NCBI GenBank assembly: GCA_030550025.1
Contig: JAUQQC010000002.1
Coordinates: forward strand, 262,058-326,057
DNA: 64,000 nucleotides
Direction: 5' to 3'
From: Acidobacteriota bacterium
GTDB lineage: Bacteria; Acidobacteriota; Blastocatellia; HR10
Shown here: positions 53,829 to 63,281 of the stretch, in pieces
How positions within the stretch are numbered: the stretch's first letter is position 1
Layout of the letters: the number at the start of each line of letters is the position of its first letter
Position numbers and translations under genes: made by a program
The notes under the pieces: model-generated
Seen by the model: only the letters and a program-made list of their open reading frames with translations
Told to the model about the DNA's origin: nothing
The model's database searches: none

Positions 53829-54623
53829 TCACCAGAGCAATTCGCCGCGCCACATTGTGATGGCCTGTCCACCGAGGATGACGCGATCGCCAGCGAGGCG
53901 AACGCGAACTACACCTCCTCGCGCGGAAGCTTGATAGGCGAGCAGCTCCGCGCGCCCGAGCCTCTGCCCCCAAAATGGCCCCAAGCAGCAGTGCGCCGAT
54001 CCGGTAACCGGATCTTCGCGCACGCCGACGCGCGGCGCGAAAAAGCGCGAGACGAAATCAAAAGGTGGCGTCGCGGAACGACTGGTGACGATGATGCCGC
54101 GCGTGGGAATCGCTTCCAGCAGGGCGAAATTCGGAGTGAGTCGCCGCACGACGTCTTCGGATTCGACTTCGACGAGATAATCGAAGCGGCTCCGACCGAC
54201 GAAGCATGGCGTCACGCCCAAGCTCTCCTGGAGCCGAGGGGGGGCCTGCGTCGGCTCAGCCGGCGTCGCTGGAAAATCCAATTCGATCCATTCGCCGCGG
54301 CGCATTGCCACGAGCACGCCGCTTCGCGTGAAGAAGCGAATGGATTCTTGCGGGGTGACGTATCCCTCCGTCCACAAGATGTGCGCACTCGCCAGCGTCG
54401 CATGACCGCATAACTCGACCTCGATGGTCGGCGTGAACCATCGGAGGTGGAACCCGTCTTCGTCCGGCCAGAGGAAGGCCGTCTCCGAGAGATTCATCTC
54501 TTGCGCGACCCGCTGCATCCACGACGTCTCTCTCGGTTCTGAGAGCACGCACACGGCAGCCGGATTGCCCGAGAACGGCGCATCCGTGAAGGCGTTGACC
54601 TGAAAGATCGGCGTCCTCATCAT
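53829..54623 (-). CDS. PhzF-family phenazine-biosynthesis-like isomerase/epimerase
   Basis: PIFQVNAFTDAPFSGNPAAVCVL...ETAFL...FTPTIEVELCGHATLASAHIL are PhzF/DAP-epimerase-fold hallmarks. Confidence 0.85.
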   Translation of the reverse strand: MMRTPIFQVNAFTDAPFSGNPAAVCVLSEPRETSWMQRVAQEMNLSETAFLWPDEDGFHLRWFTPTIEVELCGHATLASAHILWTEGYVTPQESIRFFTRSGVLVAMRRGEWIELDFPATPAEPTQAPPRLQESLGVTPCFVGRSRFDYLVEVESEDVVRRLTPNFALLEAIPTRGIIVTSRSATPPFDFVSRFFAPRVGVREDPVTGSAHCCLGPFWGQRLGRAELLAYQASARGGVVRVRLAGDRVILGGQAITMWRGELLW

Positions 54624-56742: not shown

Positions 56743-57888
56743 TCAGGCCGCCAGCGATGCGCTCTCGGAGGTCGAGGGCGCCTCCTCCAGAAGCGGGCAG
56801 TGTGGGGGTAACGCCGCAAGCTTCCGCCGAATGATGTCGCGTGAGTACTTCTCGACATAGTGCACGATCGTCTCGACGCGAATCTTGATGCTGCCGGCCG
56901 GCTTAGTGGCATCCAGATCGCCGAATTTGAAATAGAGCGTGCCCGAGGCCTCGACGATCTTCTGCGTCGGCGTATAGGTCGGTTGGTCCATCCCGCATTC
57001 GTAGCTGGAGAAACGGATGACGCAAGTGACCCACGGACACCGAGCGGCGACTTTCGCCCCCCACAGGATCTCATTCGTGTTGCTGCTGTAGGATGAAGGC
57101 CAGACGTCGGAGATATCAAAGGGGCTCTTGATCCGTCCGGCGCGAATCTCTTCGCCGAAGAGCCAGTGCATGAGATCGTCATCGGTGGGGAAGTACTGCA
57201 TCCAGAGGATGGGGAATCCGTGGGCTTGCAGTTCGGCTTCGATCTCGTGCCCGATGCCCGGATCCATGTGATACGGGCGCGCGAGCACGAGGATGCATGG
57301 GCGCTCATGACGCGCGCACCAGGTGAGGATCTCCCGGCTCTTCTGCCGCATCTTCTGATTGAACGCTTCCAGGGCACGGTATCCGGCCTCGACGGCCCGC
57401 GCCGTCTCCTCTTCGGTAAGGTCGAGGACGTCTTTGAGCGCGAGATAGAGCTGCTTCGGGACCTTCTCCGGCTCGCCGAGTGAGACAAACGGCGAGACAT
57501 ATCGAATCCCGTTCTCGGCGAAGACATCCCGCTCTTTGAGAAATCCCGCCTTGATGTTCTCCGGTCCGGCCATCACCCGCGTGCAGGTGAGCGTGTCCAG
57601 CACATGGCCGCGCAGAAAGGAGGGCAGGGAATAGATCATCGGGCTCAGCAGGACGTCGATCTTCTTCTTCTGGCCGAAGATCAATTCCCCATAGTGCCCG
57701 CTCATGCACTTGACCGGATAGCAGCAGTCCACCGTACCGCGCCCCTTCCCATACTCGCGATACTGCTCTTCGGAAGTGTCGGAGCTGAAGACGATGTTCT
57801 CGGGCGCGATCCCCAAGGCCGTCAGAAATCCCACCCAGAATTGATGAGTGCTCCAGATGTTCAGGACCTTCGGGATCCCTACGCGCAC
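56743..57888 (-). CDS. HgdA/HgdB-like protein; likely DUF2229 (CoA enzyme activase uncharacterised domain)
   Basis: VRVGIPKVLNIWSTHQFWVGFLTALG N-terminus resembles the DUF2229 start; Cys cluster GTVDCCYPVKCMSGHY; GTG start at ~57888 with AAGGA RBS; last gene of the activase operon. Confidence 0.55.
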   Translation of the reverse strand: MRVGIPKVLNIWSTHQFWVGFLTALGIAPENIVFSSDTSEEQYREYGKGRGTVDCCYPVKCMSGHYGELIFGQKKKIDVLLSPMIYSLPSFLRGHVLDTLTCTRVMAGPENIKAGFLKERDVFAENGIRYVSPFVSLGEPEKVPKQLYLALKDVLDLTEEETARAVEAGYRALEAFNQKMRQKSREILTWCARHERPCILVLARPYHMDPGIGHEIEAELQAHGFPILWMQYFPTDDDLMHWLFGEEIRAGRIKSPFDISDVWPSSYSSNTNEILWGAKVAARCPWVTCVIRFSSYECGMDQPTYTPTQKIVEASGTLYFKFGDLDATKPAGSIKIRVETIVHYVEKYSRDIIRRKLAALPPHCPLLEEAPSTSESASLAA

Positions 57889-57901
57889 CGACGAGCGATC
57901 C

Positions 57902-60079
57902 TTAGGCGGCGACGCGGCGGAAGCCCTCTTTCCGAACAAAGTCCGCAATGTTGGGATACGCATTTTTCGTCTTCTCCAGTTCGGCTTTGATGGCCTTCAT
58001 CTCGTTGACGTCCTCGACAAGCCCCTTCGGACACGAATTGTTCACGATCACGCGCTCCCATCCTTCGGGGAGAGGGACTTTGCTCCACGGACGCCCTTTT
58101 CCACCCGGCAATTCGACGTCAATGAAACTGCGTTGGCAGTTGACGGGACACCACTTGCACACCGTATCGGGCGATGTCGTCGTCTTGTAGGTGAGGTTCT
58201 CGATGACGTCGAAGCCGCGGAAACGGGTACGCCCGCCGCGCTCCCACCATTCGTGGGCGATGAGTGCCGCGCCGATGGCCCCCGCTTCGCCCGAATACGG
58301 GTGGACGACGATCTCGGCCTCTGGGACTTTCGACTTGATGAAATCCACTTGCGCTTTGACGACGGCCAAGTTCTTATGCGTCCCTCCTTGGAGGATGAAT
58401 TTTCGTCCGACCTGCGCGAGATTGTTCAATCCGCCGGCGTAGATCCACACGTTCAGCGGGAGGATGGCGCAGAGTCCGGCGAGGATCTCCTCGGCCTGCC
58501 AGCCCTTGCGTTGCTGGTTCACGATGTCGCTCTGAAGGAAGACGCCGCAGCCCATCGTCAATTGGGGCATGGCTTGCGCGCGAAAAGCGTAGTCGGCGAT
58601 CTGCTCCAGGGGGATACCAAAGCGCTCGGCCACGCCTTGAAGGAAGGCACCATTGCCCGACGAACATTGTGAATTGAGCCGAAAGTCCGAGACCGTGCCG
58701 TTTTTGAGGATCATGATCTTGACGTCTACTCCTCCCACGTCACAGATGCAATCGGCATCGGGGAAGAAATAGAGTCCGGCCGTCGCGTGCGCGATCGTCT
58801 CCACCACCGCGCAATCAGCTCCGATGATCCCTTTGAGCAGGTCCTTCCCATAGCCGGTGATGCCGACGGCCAGGATCTCCCCGTCCCCGACGGCCGCTCG
58901 AATCTGGCGAAAGAGCGCCTTGGCGTCCTCGATGGGATTGCCACGGCTGAGGGCATAGCAGGAGAAGACCAGTTCTCTCTCAGGCGAGAGACAAACGGCT
59001 TTGGCCGTCGTTGAGCCGAAGTCGCATCCAAGGATCACGCGCGAGAGATCAGGGGCTGTGTGCCCCTTCCGAGGGGAGAGTCGAGAATCAGCGCGCCCAT
59101 TGCTCCCGTAAGTGAGTCGAAATCGCTGCAACTCCTCCGGCGTCGCCCAGAGGCCCTTTCGCCCCTCTCGCTTCTTCTCCTCGTACTGCCCCTCTTCGAT
59201 CCACCACTGGAGCTTCTCTCTGCCTCGGTACACGCCGGTATGCTCCGGCTCACGCCGCGCGATCTCGATGCATCCGAGGGCCGCGTAATAGAGCGCGTCC
59301 TTGGGGACGTAGATGAGCGAGGCGGGATCGCGATCCTCCGGCAATGGGACCTTCCGTTCCTTCCAAATCTTGAGCAGGTGGTGGCGCCAGGCTTCTTGTA
59401 AGCCTTTGAAGAAGAGGTTGGGCCCGCCAAGGAGCAGGACTTCCGGCATCGGCGTGTTGCCGCGGGTGAGCGTCGCGAGATTCTGATAGACGACGGCCTC
59501 AAAGAGCGAAGCGATGATCTCCTCGACCGAAACGCCCGCCTTCAGCAACGTATTGGCATCGGCCTCGGCGAAGATGCCGCACTTGCTGCTGATCTTATGG
59601 AGCGGATACCCCTCGTAGCGCATCTCCGCCAATTGCTCCAGTGGAATCTGCAGCTTGCGCGCGGTCTTCTCGATGAACGTGCCCGTTCCCCCTGAGCAAG
59701 CGCTCTGCATGAGGACCTGCTTCCCTTTGGAGTGGCCGTCGCCGGTGAAGAAGATCGTCTTCATGTCCTCGCCGCCGATCTCGCTGACGAATCGCACGGC
59801 CGGATGCAAGCGCTCGACGGCCGCCGCCACGGCGACGACTTCCTGAACAACCCGAGCGCCCACGAGCGAAGCGATCAAGCCAGCTCCTGATCCCGTGAAG
59901 AAGATGCGGTCTCGTCCCGGCGTCAGCCCATACTCGTGTTCCAAGCGGGTGAGGAATTCCAAAACCTTCTCCGCCTGTCGCGTGTTGTGTCGCTCGTAGG
60001 CGTGCGCCAAGATCTCCCCTTCGGGCGATGCCAGAACGTATTTGCACGTCGTGCTGCCGACATCCATGCCGCAGATCAT
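57902..60079 (-). CDS. Tandem BadF/BadG/BcrA/BcrD (HgdC-like) activase ATPase: two ASKHA-fold [4Fe-4S] activator domains
   Basis: ICGMDVGSTTCKYVL and ILGCDFGSTTAKAVCL (phosphate-1 loops), SACSGGTGTFIEKTARKL and NSQCSSGNGAFLQGVAERFGI (HgdC CAAGTG-type motifs), C-terminal CKWCPVNCQRS; ATG at ~60079 preceded by AAGGAGGGG. Confidence 0.85.
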   Translation of the reverse strand: MICGMDVGSTTCKYVLASPEGEILAHAYERHNTRQAEKVLEFLTRLEHEYGLTPGRDRIFFTGSGAGLIASLVGARVVQEVVAVAAAVERLHPAVRFVSEIGGEDMKTIFFTGDGHSKGKQVLMQSACSGGTGTFIEKTARKLQIPLEQLAEMRYEGYPLHKISSKCGIFAEADANTLLKAGVSVEEIIASLFEAVVYQNLATLTRGNTPMPEVLLLGGPNLFFKGLQEAWRHHLLKIWKERKVPLPEDRDPASLIYVPKDALYYAALGCIEIARREPEHTGVYRGREKLQWWIEEGQYEEKKREGRKGLWATPEELQRFRLTYGSNGRADSRLSPRKGHTAPDLSRVILGCDFGSTTAKAVCLSPERELVFSCYALSRGNPIEDAKALFRQIRAAVGDGEILAVGITGYGKDLLKGIIGADCAVVETIAHATAGLYFFPDADCICDVGGVDVKIMILKNGTVSDFRLNSQCSSGNGAFLQGVAERFGIPLEQIADYAFRAQAMPQLTMGCGVFLQSDIVNQQRKGWQAEEILAGLCAILPLNVWIYAGGLNNLAQVGRKFILQGGTHKNLAVVKAQVDFIKSKVPEAEIVVHPYSGEAGAIGAALIAHEWWERGGRTRFRGFDVIENLTYKTTTSPDTVCKWCPVNCQRSFIDVELPGGKGRPWSKVPLPEGWERVIVNNSCPKGLVEDVNEMKAIKAELEKTKNAYPNIADFVRKEGFRRVAA

Positions 60080-60127
60080 CGCTTCCCCTCCTTGCGGACG
60101 GCTTCTCGTCAAGAGACCTCCTGACGC

Positions 60128-61645
60128 TCACCGCATCTTCCGCGCCAGGTGCATGACGTAATTGGCCGCCGTGCCCGCATAGCCATAGTGCGGGATACGA
60201 TAGGTGCTCCGCTGGACCTCCGGATGCCGCTCCTCATAGCGGCGGATCGCCTCCAGGGTGAGGCCGGTCTTGGCGAGCGCGTCCTCGAATTCCGCATGAG
60301 CGCGTCGCTTGGCTTCGGTCAGGATCATCTGGCATCGGGAGAGCGCGTGCACTTCAGCATCTCCCTTCACCTCGATCGGCGCATAGAGCAGATCCGGATA
60401 GCGGCCGAGCACGTTGGCCATCGCGCCAATGGACATCGTGTTCGGCATGCAGGAGTAGGGTGACAGCTCACAAATCATGTGTGCCTTTTTATGCCGATAG
60501 GCATAGAGCGCTTTCCCCACGAGCATGTGCCCTTCGCCCCCGCGTAGTTCGTAGTGGTAGTAGGGTTTGGCCAAGTGCTTGAGCTCCTCTTGATCGGGAA
60601 GCTCGTAGGGGAGATTGCCGAGTGCCTTGCGAAAGCGATTGTAGACGAAGTGATAGATGTGCTCCAAGGTTCGAATGAGCGCGATCTTCTTGCGGTTGCG
60701 CTCGGCACCCTTCCATTCCTCAGAGGTAATCGGCGAATGCAGCAGATAGTCGAGCCAGACAGCAATCGGCGGCGGAATGACCTCGGCCCCTTCTTGCTCG
60801 AGCCATCGCTTGATGTTGTAGTTGCCATCGCCCTCATGCGTCTGGAGCCAGAATTCGCCCGTGATCTTCACCTTCGGCTTGACGCGAAGCCGATCCACGC
60901 GAATGGCATCCCAACGCTTCCGCACGTCGCGCAGGGCATCGGTGAAGTAGTCGGTCAGGACATGCCAAGCGAAGACCTTCAGCTTCCCTCCACGTAGCTT
61001 CTCCTGAGGCCGATTTCGGAAGACGTCGTACAGATACTCGATGCTCTCGCGCAGGACCCGATCCGTCTCTCCGGGGACGATCTCGTAAGGACGCGTCATA
61101 TATTCGAGGTCGGTCAACACATCGGCGCAGAGGATCGCCCAGACAAGCCCCAGGCTCAAGGGGAGATTGATCTCTAACCCCCCGCCGTGGGTCGCCCCTT
61201 GATCGAGTTGATTCTGCGCCAGCAGGAAGAGGCGGAAGTCCCGAAGGCCAAGCCCATCGAGCGCCATCGTGTACGATTCATGATATTGCCCAAACCGGCA
61301 GGGACCACACGCCCCCGCCGTCAGAAAGACATAGCGCTTCACGACCTCCTCGCGACCCAGCGCGGCCATCTCCGATTTGAGGAAATTCGCCAAGTTCCCC
61401 GTCGTGAAGATCGTCGGACAGCACGCCCCGACGTCAATCAGCTCCTTCCCCGCATCCAAATCCGCGCGCGTGATGTTCGGAAGCGGCTGGGCCTTGTAGC
61501 CCAAGTTATGCATCACGCCCTGGATCAATCGCTCGTGCTTCCAGGTCAACCCTCCGAAGAGGATCGTCACCGTCGCCCGCTCCTCTCGCGTGAAGGGGCG
61601 AGGCCGATAGGCCGTATAGTGGTTGATCCTCTGGATCGTCTCCAT
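60128..61645 (-). CDS. HgdA/HgdB-like (2-hydroxyacyl-CoA dehydratase D-component-like) protein
   Basis: 505 aa; Cys motifs VGACCPTIF and AGACGPCRFGQY; C-terminal CELSPYSCMPNTMSIGAM; first gene of the operon; ATG at ~61645 preceded by GAGGAAGAGGAGGTG. Confidence 0.55.
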   Translation of the reverse strand: METIQRINHYTAYRPRPFTREERATVTILFGGLTWKHERLIQGVMHNLGYKAQPLPNITRADLDAGKELIDVGACCPTIFTTGNLANFLKSEMAALGREEVVKRYVFLTAGACGPCRFGQYHESYTMALDGLGLRDFRLFLLAQNQLDQGATHGGGLEINLPLSLGLVWAILCADVLTDLEYMTRPYEIVPGETDRVLRESIEYLYDVFRNRPQEKLRGGKLKVFAWHVLTDYFTDALRDVRKRWDAIRVDRLRVKPKVKITGEFWLQTHEGDGNYNIKRWLEQEGAEVIPPPIAVWLDYLLHSPITSEEWKGAERNRKKIALIRTLEHIYHFVYNRFRKALGNLPYELPDQEELKHLAKPYYHYELRGGEGHMLVGKALYAYRHKKAHMICELSPYSCMPNTMSIGAMANVLGRYPDLLYAPIEVKGDAEVHALSRCQMILTEAKRRAHAEFEDALAKTGLTLEAIRRYEERHPEVQRSTYRIPHYGYAGTAANYVMHLARKMR

Positions 61646-61671
61646 AAGCGCACCTCCTCTTCCTCGCAACA

Positions 61672-61701
61672 CCCACTAGACTGACATGTCAGTCTAGTGG
61701 G
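61672..61701. promoter_or_regulatory. Perfect 30-bp palindrome CCCACTAGACTGACA|TGTCAGTCTAGTGGG between the TetR gene and the activase operon; candidate TetR operator
   Basis: 15+15 nt with no mismatch and no spacer, read directly; on the coding (minus) strand a T7 run lies upstream of it rather than downstream; coordinates +/- 2 nt. Confidence 0.5.
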
Positions 61702-61715
61702 GAGGTAAAAAAAAT

Positions 61716-62357
61716 TCACGACGTGGCCGAGCGGGCGAAGACGCCGCGCAGGCCGAAGTTGAAAAGCTCCTCAACGACGATCTCAAGCGGCGGAAGATCC
61801 TCGCGATGAGTCGTCAACTGATCGGCCACCTCCTTCATCGTCCCCAAGATGCAAGAGGCGACGATACGCGTTTGACAAGGGCGTACCAGGCCCATGCGAA
61901 TCCCATGCTCCAGAGAGCGCTCGATGAGCGAAAGGACGCGGTCGTAGAAAGCCTGCAGCATGGCAGCCGAGCGTTCGTCCAAGCCCACTGCCTGATGGAG
62001 GAGAATCTTCGTCAGCTCGGGATCATGGACGAGAAACTCCAGGACGCGACCAATGTTCGCCTTGACTTGCGCGAGCGGATCGGGCGCACCCGGGCTGAGG
62101 TCAATGGGCCGAATCCGTTGGCGCAGCTCCTTGAGGACTTCGTCCAGGAGACTATCGAAGATATCACGCTTGCTTGTGAAATAGAGATAGAACGTCCCCC
62201 GCGCGATGCCCGCGCTTTCGATGATGTCTGAGACGCTCGCGTTGTGATATCCCTTCTGCGAGAAGACCTGTTTGGCGAAGAAGAGGATCTGATTCCGCCG
62301 TGTCTCCTTCAGCTCTTTCAGCTCCTTATGGACGACCACCTCGCCCATCCTCGACAT
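61716..62357 (-). CDS. TetR/AcrR-family transcriptional regulator
   Basis: RRNQILFFAKQVFSQKGYHNASVSDIIESAGIARGTFYLYFTSKRDIF is a TetR HTH; start chosen at M11 (GGAGA 5 nt upstream); the ORF-track start at 62387 is also possible. Confidence 0.85.
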   Translation of the reverse strand: MSRMGEVVVHKELKELKETRRNQILFFAKQVFSQKGYHNASVSDIIESAGIARGTFYLYFTSKRDIFDSLLDEVLKELRQRIRPIDLSPGAPDPLAQVKANIGRVLEFLVHDPELTKILLHQAVGLDERSAAMLQAFYDRVLSLIERSLEHGIRMGLVRPCQTRIVASCILGTMKEVADQLTTHREDLPPLEIVVEELFNFGLRGVFARSATS

Positions 62358-62582
62358 AAAAGTCTCCATGAAGAGCAGGAAACTCATATCACATGAGGTC
62401 CACGTCTGTCAAGCTGAGTTTGGCGAAACGAGACGGTGACTTCGGGGAAACTTGGCGGACAGGGCGATGGGCCGTTCAACCGCAGGCCCCAAGCAAGGGC
62501 ATCACACCTCTTTCGCCCAAGGGGCTCTCACATTCGGGTTCCGTGAACAGGGTGCAGCAGAGCGCAAGCGCGAAAGCGCTCG

Positions 62583-62828: not shown

Positions 62829-63281
62829 TCATTGATCGTGTTCGATGTAGGTGAACGAGACATCGCGCTCATCCTCCGATTCCGAGGCTGAGACGCGCGC
62901 GCGCAGCCACGCACTATAGTTGAGCGGTACCAGCGCGAACTTCTCCGTCACTTGCGAGACCAAGCGCTCGCCCAGCTCCATCCGCAGATACTCCAAGAAC
63001 CGCTGTATCTCTCGCTGCATGGCGTCCATCTTGTCCCGCATGTTGAGGATGATCTCCACTCCTGCTAGATTCACGCCCAACTCGCGCGTGAGCGTCAGGA
63101 TGAACTCCAATCGCTCGAGGTCCTTCTCGGAATAATACCGCGTGTTCCCCTTGGAGCGGGAAGGTTTCAACAGCCCATGCCGCTCGTAGAGCCGTAACGT
63201 CTGAGGATGAATCCCATAGGCCTCAGACACCGCGCTGATCGTGTAGCCTTTCTCTTTCCTCTTCTTCACCCCATCGACCAT
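62829..63281 (-). CDS. hspR: MerR-family heat-shock transcriptional repressor HspR
   Basis: YTISAVSEAYGIHPQTLRLYERHGLLKPSRSKGNTRYYSEKDLERLEFILTLTRELGVNLAGVEIIL resembles the HspR HTH and dimerisation region; sits next to dnaK with HAIR-like operators. Confidence 0.8.
   Translation of the reverse strand: MVDGVKKRKEKGYTISAVSEAYGIHPQTLRLYERHGLLKPSRSKGNTRYYSEKDLERLEFILTLTRELGVNLAGVEIILNMRDKMDAMQREIQRFLEYLRMELGERLVSQVTEKFALVPLNYSAWLRARVSASESEDERDVSFTYIEHDQ

Follow-up and report, generated by a model that had tools for sequence, protein, structure and literature searches.

The locus described here raises the question of what is reduced by a predicted ATP-driven activator and its two reductase-like partners in an Acidobacterium, and whether their division over three genes is genuine. 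In the window (the whole stretch of DNA analysed, 64,000 nucleotides), the operon probably encodes, judging from domain content and conserved residues, a three-subunit member of the PlsA/PlsR/Ger family that would convert ester-linked membrane lipids into ether lipids. PlsA, PlsR and Ger form the lipid-modifying branch of the benzoyl-CoA reductase (BCR)/2-hydroxyacyl-CoA dehydratase superfamily. By sequence comparison, the operon is a new architectural variant of this known family, with the modules divided over three genes and their order changed.

Gene organisation and recurrence of the three-gene split

The open reading frame listing places the genes for a TetR-family repressor, the protein termed X, the tandem ATPase (BB) and the DUF2229 protein (D) on one strand (Table 1), at or near the positions of the original prediction and in the predicted order tetR, X, ATPase, DUF2229. 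The junctions, anticipated as near-abutting, measure 48 nt between X and the ATPase gene and 13 nt between the ATPase and DUF2229 genes. Each of the three genes following tetR has its own ribosome-binding site, and that of the DUF2229 gene (AAGGA) overlaps the ATPase stop codon. An alternative in-frame ATG start lies at 57963 for the DUF2229 gene, and the Pfam DUF2229 profile (PF09989, E 1e-43, profile positions 1–216 of 218) has its position 1 exactly at the GTG.

Table 1 Features of the operon and its predicted control region.
Feature	Coordinates	Strand	Remarks
DUF2229 protein, first reductase module (Red1 of PlsA), 381 aa	56743..57888	-	GTG start
Tandem HgdC/BcrAD-type ATPase ('archerase' activator), 725 aa	57902..60079	-	AGGAGG 8 nt upstream
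X, PlsR-equivalent second reductase module, 505 aa	60128..61645	-	ATG start, GGAGG 7 nt upstream
Predicted TetR operator	61672..61701	.	Perfect 30-bp palindrome in the tetR-X spacer
TetR-family repressor, 213 aa from ATG at 62357	61716..62357	-	Pfam TetR_N, TetR_C_24

The short gap between the BB stop and the D start, together with the fusion of BB and D in relatives, could suggest that the three reading frames are remnants of a gene that was formerly fused, whether as a pseudogene or through a frameshift artefact. This is extremely improbable, as the identical split was found again in independent assemblies with 73–96% protein identity and all motifs intact, all 120 of the 120 homologues listed are DUF2229 proteins that stand alone, with lengths of 360–420 aa, and the genes have separate ribosome-binding sites. 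The recurrence and the standalone homologues together indicate that the division into three genes does not stem from misassembly. In the sequences compared, a conserved clade within the Acidobacteriota is defined by the split between ATPase and DUF2229 and has further invariant cysteines.

Among ~85 loci from a wide range of phyla, nearly all have X, BB and D next to one another in this order on the same strand, and about 80 loci from many phyla pair X with a fused ATPase-DUF2229 gene. The latter type is represented by the PlsAR homologues of Solibacter usitatus (Halamka 2022), another Acidobacterium with the X-first order, in which the 589-aa X-like Acid_0921 is followed by the 1188-aa Acid_0922; their sizes agree with those of the two-gene loci found here. 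BB and D form a single protein in Acid_0922 but are split in the window, whose proteins are ~40–50% identical to the S. usitatus pair and belong to a separate clade with more cysteines. Natural fusions occur in both orders (P0179, BB-D-X; P0151, X-BB-D), and B. laterosporus has BBD followed by X. The window order X, ATPase-ATPase, DUF2229 is a permutation of that in the canonical fused and two-gene forms, as comparison with the fused Listeria PlsA and P0179 bears out. The arrangement is no rarity, however, since about 80 loci from many phyla keep the X-first order.

The tandem activator and its two reductase modules

The ATPase matches Pfam BcrAD_BadFG (PF01869) in two stretches (E 5e-75) and NCBIfam CoA_E_activ (TIGR00241) with 240 bits against a cutoff of 125, and in the PDB it matches 1hux, 9gai, 4eht and 7yyl_E. 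Cysteines C128/C167 and C472/C511 of the two halves align with Cys127/Cys166 of HgdC and with the MbdQ cysteines, and the ATP motifs DxGST, (E/D)xGGxD and GG(P/T) are present in both halves. The prediction of a tandem HgdC-type activator therefore stands, with neither the cluster-bridging cysteines nor the ATP motifs missing from either half. After the second ATPase domain lies a C-terminal CxxCxxxC...C motif (C641, C644, C648 and C683), which was found in all ten proteins checked, from both Acidobacteriota clades, B. laterosporus, Listeria, P0179 and P0151.

The two HgdA/B-like partners that had been proposed are likewise recognisable, as both X and the DUF2229 protein model as HgdAB/BCR/DCCP folds, with DCCP among the top fold matches, and each has three cysteines that are invariant in 14 diverse members including Listeria (C75, C116 and C399 in X; C56, C102 and C298 in the DUF2229 protein). 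X aligns with the C-terminal, PlsR-equivalent module of the fused Listeria PlsA (residues 994–1402; E 3e-28, 24% identity over 444 aa) with all three cysteines in register, and on this alignment we assign X as a homologue of that module. Identity to Listeria PlsA is 25% for the DUF2229 protein and 32% for the ATPase.

The description of X as HGD-D-like holds for the modelled fold but not at the level of profiles. X had no Pfam or NCBIfam match at E≤10 and no PDB sequence match; 42 diverse X relatives likewise lacked any Pfam or NCBIfam match, and for Pfam HGD-D (PF06050) this held at E≤1. The HGD-D HMM matched neither the DUF2229 protein at E≤10 nor Listeria PlsA. HgdAB, BCR and DCCP-type sequences, in contrast, do match HGD-D. 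The HMM searches placed neither flanking protein in an unrelated family. Because X fits no domain model, the operon can escape notice when genomes are screened for producers of ether lipids and brGDGTs.

Beyond the family-wide set, further cysteines distinguish the three-gene clade from PlsA/PlsR. In the DUF2229 protein, C55, C191 and C289 are invariant in the close-clade alignment and missing from the other sampled members. In X, C76, C392 and C438 are invariant in the three-gene clade only, whereas C113, also invariant there, is present in all other sampled members except Listeria. The X proteins of this clade thus carry the pairs 75/76, 113/116 and 392/399, without a sequence match to DCCP and its six-Cys [8Fe-9S] site. 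These extra invariant cysteines could reflect different cofactors or chemistry.

The predicted assembly resembles HgdAB with HgdC, HadBC with HadI, the Bzd/Mbd NOPQ enzymes and DCCP with DCCP-R, all ATP-driven 'archerase' systems with a bridging [4Fe-4S] cluster such as that predicted here. HgdAB, HadBC, Bzd/Mbd and DCCP also have two pseudo-symmetric catalytic subunits of the same fold with a three-Cys cluster site each, as modelled for the window proteins. The activators of those systems, however, are homodimers or heterodimers of single domains, whereas the window activator is a tandem fusion, and the substrates of 2-hydroxyacyl-CoA dehydratases, class I BCR and DCCP are CoA thioesters or small molecules, unlike the proposed glycerolipid.

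A candidate ether-lipid synthase

The fused ~1400-aa relatives had been regarded as proteins of unknown function, yet they are PlsA/PlsR in the accounts given in PMC9702350 and PMC12838417 and Ger in PMC13159169. PlsA/PlsR is the plasmalogen synthase of Jackson 2021, as cited in the first two of these papers; it acts on membrane glycerolipids, and the experimentally tested PlsA enzymes, those of C. perfringens, E. faecalis, L. cremoris and B. longum, all use glycerolipid esters (PMC12838417). Ger, the glycerol ester reductase (2022), also acts on membrane glycerolipids, and the tested Ger enzymes of T. maritima and D. alkenivorans likewise use glycerolipid esters (PMC13159169). For brGDGTs, the S. 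usitatus pair has been put forward as the enzyme that turns esters into ethers (PMC10087280).

The operon has the same four modules as PlsA/PlsR (C. perfringens CPE1195/CPE1194 and the single-gene PlsA of E. faecalis, Listeria and L. cremoris), namely a pair of HgdC-like ATPase domains, the DUF2229 module (Red1) and a further reductase module (Red2/PlsR), and it shares with them the CxxCxxxC...C linker motif and three cysteines per reductase module. It differs in comprising three polypeptides rather than one or two, with the PlsR-like module first, in an identity of only 24–32% to Listeria PlsA, and in its host, which is probably an aerobic or thermophilic Acidobacterium rather than a fermenting anaerobe. 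Ger (T. maritima Tmari_0479; D. alkenivorans SHJ90043), compared here by description only, likewise contains BB, DUF2229 and a diverged C-terminal reductase region, but as a single fused protein beginning BB-D. BB with DUF2229 is the signature of the tested PlsA/Ger members, and the P0179 and P0151 fusions link all three modules within a single enzyme, which supports the ether-lipid synthase assignment.

In the proposed mechanism, the tandem ATPase would hold one cluster, presumably [4Fe-4S], between its halves through four cysteines, two per half, and would be reduced by a ferredoxin or flavodoxin. ATP hydrolysis would then drive a low-potential electron from the ATPase to the Fe-S clusters in a heterodimer of D and X, with three cysteine ligands in each subunit. 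There, reduction and dehydration of the carbonyl of a membrane glycerophospholipid's sn-1 acyl ester may yield an ether, which would be of the vinyl kind (PlsA-type) or, if reduced further, a saturated alkyl ether (Ger-type).

By analogy with these enzymes, the likely substrate is the sn-1 acyl ester of membrane glycerolipids rather than a CoA ester of unnamed kind. The original prediction of an ATP-dependent reductive enzyme is thus retained for the activator and its partners, but not for the undefined substrate, given relatives known to act on glycerolipids. As predicted, no CoA-transferase, CoA-ligase or acyl-CoA gene was found in the window, nor in the loci inspected gene by gene, and no CoA-transferase, ligase or acyl-CoA dehydrogenase was among the recurrent neighbour families of ~85 loci. 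What had appeared puzzling in this is expected for PlsA/PlsR/Ger, because these enzymes act on membrane glycerolipids.

An ATP-dependent radical or reductive enzyme whose substrate is not a lipid but a CoA ester or, as for DCCP, a small molecule is distinctly unlikely. In its favour, identity to validated PlsA-type lipid enzymes is as low as given above, and X lies outside every curated family. The fold match to DCCP points the same way, as do the extra invariant cysteines beside each ligand cysteine of the three-gene-clade X, which loosely recall the six-Cys double-cubane site of DCCP, and the operon's neighbours are heat-shock and housekeeping genes, with no lipid genes by domain annotation of the 64-kb window. 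However, BB, DUF2229 and X constituted the PlsA/Ger architecture in every case found, the CoA-handling genes named above are unlinked in both surveys, the regulator is FadR-like, and related Ignavibacteria loci contain hpnCDE as lipid context.

As to the ether formed, we lean towards a more Ger-like product, an alkyl ether, given the reports of alkyl ethers, the saturated products of Ger, from Acidobacteria. A plasmalogen (vinyl-ether) synthase like C. perfringens PlsA/PlsR is unlikely, although the modules correspond to Act1, Act2, Red1 and Red2 of PlsA/PlsR (PMC12838417) and the one reference aligned here is the fused Listeria PlsA. Acidobacteria have been reported with saturated alkyl glycerol ethers, with plasmalogens unmentioned (PMC13159169, PMC13274423, PMC10087280), and a heuristic of the field ties two B domains to alkyl ethers (PMC13274423); this heuristic is weak because Listeria PlsA likewise has two B stretches, and according to the same authors Ger and PlsA are not yet separable by sequence. 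No Ger homologues are reported from cultured subdivision-4 Acidobacteria that nonetheless make ethers, and those ethers have been attributed to the elb cluster (PMC13159169), so ether lipids in that subdivision do not depend on the operon.

The TetR repressor and the palindrome

The dedicated TetR predicted directly upstream of X is present (TetR_N, E 7e-16); an ATG further upstream, at 62387, is the less likely start. Its best NCBIfam match is Bacillus-type FadR (E 5e-19), and its full-length PDB relatives are the FadR/YsiA structures 3whb, 1vi0 and 5gp9. At 69 bits, the score falls short of the 200 bits set as FadR equivalog cutoff, in which the protein differs from FadR (YsiA) despite full-length similarity and a palindromic, here predicted, operator adjoining a lipid-related operon in both. 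A TetR gene also lies upstream of pls in E. faecalis (PMC9702350), and tetR orthologues precede X in HR10, L090, L092 and the Poribacteria locus L039.

The palindrome proposed for the tetR-X spacer is real, a spacerless 15+15 inverted repeat that is unique within the window and was matched in 0 of 100 shuffles, with a T8 run 5' of it on the gene strand. Its 20-bp core (61677–61696, TAGACTGACATGTCAGTCTA) was found in five fetched loci (L039, L088, L089, L090 and L092), each holding or adjoining the tetR-X spacer, and not in the other 87. The core co-occurs strictly with tetR, even in the Poribacteria locus, and is identical or has one central change where TetR is only 43–59% identical and the flanks differ. 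In these comparative data the palindrome behaves as a candidate TetR operator, through which the FadR-like TetR would repress the operon, probably being released on binding a fatty-acyl ligand.

It is very unlikely that the palindrome serves mainly not as an operator but as an RNA hairpin that masks the ribosome-binding site of X when transcription reads through from tetR. The tetR-X spacer RNA is predicted to fold at -35.2 kcal/mol (z = -5.5), with a U-run/ACCUCC segment pairing with the GGAGG region of X. The conservation of primary sequence despite TetR divergence and differing flanks, the confinement of the core to loci with tetR, the position of the X start ~100 nt further away in L039 and an Rfam search without any match argue instead for the operator. 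The hairpin and operator roles of the palindrome are compatible with each other.

Operon anatomy and relation to PlsA/PlsR

The ORF listing gave four co-directional ORFs on the minus strand (56743–62387), encoding a TetR regulator, the protein X, the tandem ATPase BB and the DUF2229 protein D. The four ORFs and the palindrome of the original prediction were thus present, but the HGD-D-like identity proposed there for X did not hold, as X had no match in Pfam or NCBIfam even at permissive thresholds (E ≤ 10). BB scores above the NCBIfam cutoff for the acyl-CoA dehydratase activase domain, and each of its halves aligns to the solved HgdC-type activators 1hux, 9gai_D, 4eht and 7yyl_E. Counterparts of the cluster-bridging Cys127 and Cys166 of HgdC are found in both halves (C128/C167 and C472/C511), as are the nucleotide motifs DxGST, xGGxD and GG. 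A CxxCxxxC...C motif located C-terminal to the second ATPase domain is kept in all relatives that were checked, Listeria PlsA among them. A pseudogene or frameshift product was rejected as an explanation of the split between BB and D.

Features of the window and of related loci (L-numbers)
Feature	Position	Strand	Remarks
TetR	61716–62357	-	TetR_N and TetR_C_24 domains
Palindrome	61672–61701		Perfect, 15+15; between tetR and X
X, 505 aa	60128–61645	-	ATG start, 7 nt after GGAGG
BB, tandem ATPase, 725 aa	57902–60079	-	Preceded by AGGAGG; two BcrAD_BadFG stretches, E 5e-75
D, DUF2229 protein	56743–57888	-	GTG start, where position 1 of the Pfam DUF2229 profile falls; E 1e-43
MerR/HspR-like regulator	62829–63281	-	Upstream of tetR; just under the HspR cutoff
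DUF4139/MuiA-like, 501 aa	55228–56733	+	Convergent with operon end; 9 nt between stop codons
PhzF family	53829–54623	-	Also L088:8833–9624, L090:13283–14074; beside plsA in Listeria monocytogenes, L087:8457–9305
Radical-SAM gene	e.g. L074:5756–6781		L014, L018, L034, L038, L052, L056, L059, L064, L074, L085
Glyoxalase/VOC insert	e.g. L041:9541–10041		L029, L037, L040, L041, L043, L051, L061
hpn-type neighbours	e.g. L042:93–3461		L019, L024, L027, L042, L058, L069

The fused activase proteins, regarded in the original prediction as uncharacterised, have already been assigned to plasmalogen synthesis as PlsA/PlsR; plasmalogens are made by the plsA-plsR operon of C. perfringens and, in E. faecalis, L. 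cremoris and B. longum, by a PlsA encoded in one gene (PMC9702350, PMC12838417). A fused PlsA of 1475 aa from Listeria monocytogenes (L087:3994–8421), located by tblastn of D against PLSDB, matches BB and DUF2229 in Pfam and, like X, has no HGD-D match there. X can be aligned to the C-terminal module of this protein (residues 994–1402) at E 3e-28 and 24% identity across 444 aa, all three Cys matching in position, and the identities of BB and D to the protein are 32% and 25%, respectively. In Brevibacillus laterosporus, a 1168-aa BB-D gene is followed by a 545-aa gene whose product is 35% identical to X. An exhaustive search of representatives yielded 1798 relatives of X, most of them standalone proteins of 500–600 aa, and fusions among them join the modules as BB-D-X (P0179), X-BB-D (P0151) and D-X (P0146). 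Because of these homologies and fusions, we assign X, BB and D as the predicted modules of one enzyme of the family comprising PlsA/PlsR and Ger (a reductase of glycerol esters), with X as the putative PlsR equivalent. X could be placed only by fold search and by direct BLASTP against a fused PlsA; a PDB sequence search returned no match for X alone or for a 43-sequence X profile, and none of the 43 family members had a match in Pfam.

One library protein of 1271 aa (P0159) carries the X module fused to Fer4_20, Pyr_redox_2 and ferredoxin domains and resembles GltD-type NAD(P)H oxidoreductases, an architecture that hints at a version of X given electrons without the ATPase. The PLSDB entries NZ_CP030101.1, NZ_LR134399.1 and NZ_CP011076.1 are chromosome-size records (1.4–2.9 Mb) or large housekeeping-gene fragments labelled as plasmids, and these misfiled chromosomes were the source of the reference PlsA.

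Gene order and cysteines in two clades

A scan of genome contigs uncovered 80 loci with an X ~40% identical to that of the window. As the scan motifs were derived from a divergent consensus, the matches fell in this two-gene clade; named cultured carriers of the window's clade were not among them. The loci come from Bryobacterales/Solibacteraceae, Terriglobia, Blastocatellia, Ignavibacteria, Dadabacteria, Zixibacteria, Poribacteria, Latescibacteria, Krumholzibacteria, Eisenbacteria, Thermodesulfobacteriota and others, and nearly all have X, BB and D in that order on the same strand. In the two-gene clade, BB-D is a single ORF of 1181–1188 aa and X has 588–597 aa, which agrees in size with S. 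usitatus Acid_0922 and Acid_0921. Acid_0922 and Acid_0921 were listed by Halamka et al. as homologues of PlsA and PlsR and put forward for the ester-to-ether step in the synthesis of brGDGTs (PMC10087280); the phylum therefore already had a related two-gene form proposed for this pathway. The window's proteins form part of a second clade, whose members are 73–96% identical to them; the nearest is bacterium HR10 (95%, fully syntenic), followed by MAGs labelled Blastocatellia, Terriglobales and Acidiferrales. Among the matches listed for this clade, BB and D each have a gene of their own in every case.

An alignment of 14 diverse members (both Acidobacteriota clades, Ignavibacteria, Dadabacteria, Poribacteria, an actinobacterial MAG, B. 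laterosporus, Listeria and two fusion proteins) revealed exactly three invariant Cys in D (C56, C102 and C298) and exactly three in X (C75, C116 and C399). Three Cys per cluster site is the pattern of the dehydratase/reductase superfamily, as in HadBC and HgdAB, and D and X each display it. When D was compared with X by hhalign, the local match obtained, around the first Cys motif, was weak (E 0.005, probability 7%) and is no more than suggestive of paralogy. Additional Cys adjoining the ligand Cys are invariant only in the three-gene clade (C76, C392 and C438 in X; C55, C191 and C289 in D), while C113 of X also occurs in every sampled member outside that clade except Listeria. The clade-specific Cys may support a larger or different cluster, or shield it from oxygen.

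Since the X-first order is found in the 80 two-gene loci of many phyla as well as in the window's clade, this permutation is old and widespread, and it is the third split and the added Cys that set the window's clade apart. The X, BB, D arrangement is thus a new architectural variant of the PlsA/PlsR/Ger family, not a new kind of system.

Predicted regulation and function

The palindrome has a single occurrence in the window, where none would be expected by chance, and a search for a second operator copy, both upstream of tetR and over the rest of the window, found none. Its 20-bp core, TAGACTGA(C/T)ATGTCAGTCTA, is present in the tetR–X spacer of the window, HR10, the related loci L090 and L092 and the Poribacteria locus L039, even though the TetR of L092 is 59% identical to that of the window and L039 has a TetR of 43% and an X of 42% identity. 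The core was not found in the 87 fetched loci that have no tetR. Such cross-phylum conservation of primary sequence strictly with tetR is expected of a protein operator, and the core is predicted to be the TetR operator. A T-run lies 5′ of the core in each of the named loci that have it; a terminator was rejected because this run precedes the hairpin instead of following it, and a promoter and terminator scan of the spacer gave nothing convincing. The spacer RNA matches no Rfam family. An added translational effect is conceivable, because this RNA is predicted to fold stably (z = -5.5) and its U-run/ACCUCC segment pairs with the ribosome-binding site of X. The best full-length relatives of the window's TetR are Bacillus-type FadR acyl-CoA-binding repressors (NCBIfam, below cutoff; PDB 3whb, 1vi0 and 5gp9), and a TetR is also encoded upstream of pls in E. 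faecalis (PMC9702350). The operator sequence and the FadR-like TetR provide a handle on regulation.

By analogy with the HAD/BCR 'archerase' systems and with PlsA/Ger, the reduced tandem ATPase would inject electrons, driven by ATP, into the Fe-S centres of D and X, and these would turn a membrane glycerolipid's sn-1 acyl ester into an ether by reduction and dehydration. We consider this lipid ester-to-ether function rather probable on the homologies described. The identity of the window's proteins to validated enzymes is low, and ethers are also made by cultured subdivision-4 strains in which no Ger homologues are detectable (PMC13159169). We lean towards an alkyl rather than a vinyl product because saturated ethers have been described in Acidobacteria (PMC13159169, PMC13274423, PMC10087280). 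A more specific reading, which we hold unlikely, is that the three-gene, Cys-enriched clade (the window and the Blastocatellia, Terriglobales and Acidiferrales MAGs) is a paralogue of the two-gene type with a distinct function: a glycerol ester reductase, tolerant of oxygen or with different cofactors, for saturated iso-diabolic-acid/brGDGT ethers in largely aerobic Acidobacteria, induced via a fatty-acyl-sensing TetR. If so, domain-based screens would undercount ether-lipid capacity, because the X subunit fits no model.

The brGDGTs are in wide use as palaeotemperature and pH proxies, and the bacteria and the enzyme that make their ether bonds are still debated. Acidobacteriota and many uncultured phyla carry putative PlsA/Ger machinery divided between two or three genes, with X encoded first; within Acidobacteriota this machinery falls into two deep clades, one with extra invariant Cys adjoining the cluster ligands. 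The 'second reduction domain' or PlsR has been reported missing in Acidobacteriota (a sponge-symbiont preprint) and in Solibacteraceae (a FEMS paper), which the lack of a Pfam/NCBIfam model for X may explain. The unmodelled X, the two deep clades, the clade-specific Cys and the operator sequence have apparently not been described previously in the literature searched.

Genomic surroundings

Heat-shock and housekeeping genes surround the operon in the window. In syntenic contigs, the MerR/HspR-like gene is followed by infA and is divergent from rpoZ-dnaK-dnaJ-clpB; the operon therefore adjoins a heat-shock regulon. The DUF4139/MuiA-like gene is kept in HR10 and L090. A PhzF-family gene lies ~2 kb downstream of the operon, both here and in close relatives, and, in Listeria monocytogenes, directly beside plsA, an adjacency that is probably a coincidence.

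Among the two-gene loci, 10 of 80 have a radical-SAM gene adjoining X and BB-D (341–468 aa, CNLxCxYC motif, no equivalog match) that could be a partner for membrane-spanning or methylated lipids; the window holds no homologue. At least seven two-gene loci carry a glyoxalase/VOC-family gene (~166 aa) between X and BB-D. In Ignavibacteria, squalene/phytoene-synthase-like genes of the hpnC/hpnD type (Pfam SQS_PSY, E 9e-64) lie just 5′ of X and therefore give the operon a membrane-lipid context there, and a FAD-dependent desaturase-like gene, hpnE-like by eye, is also located just upstream of X.
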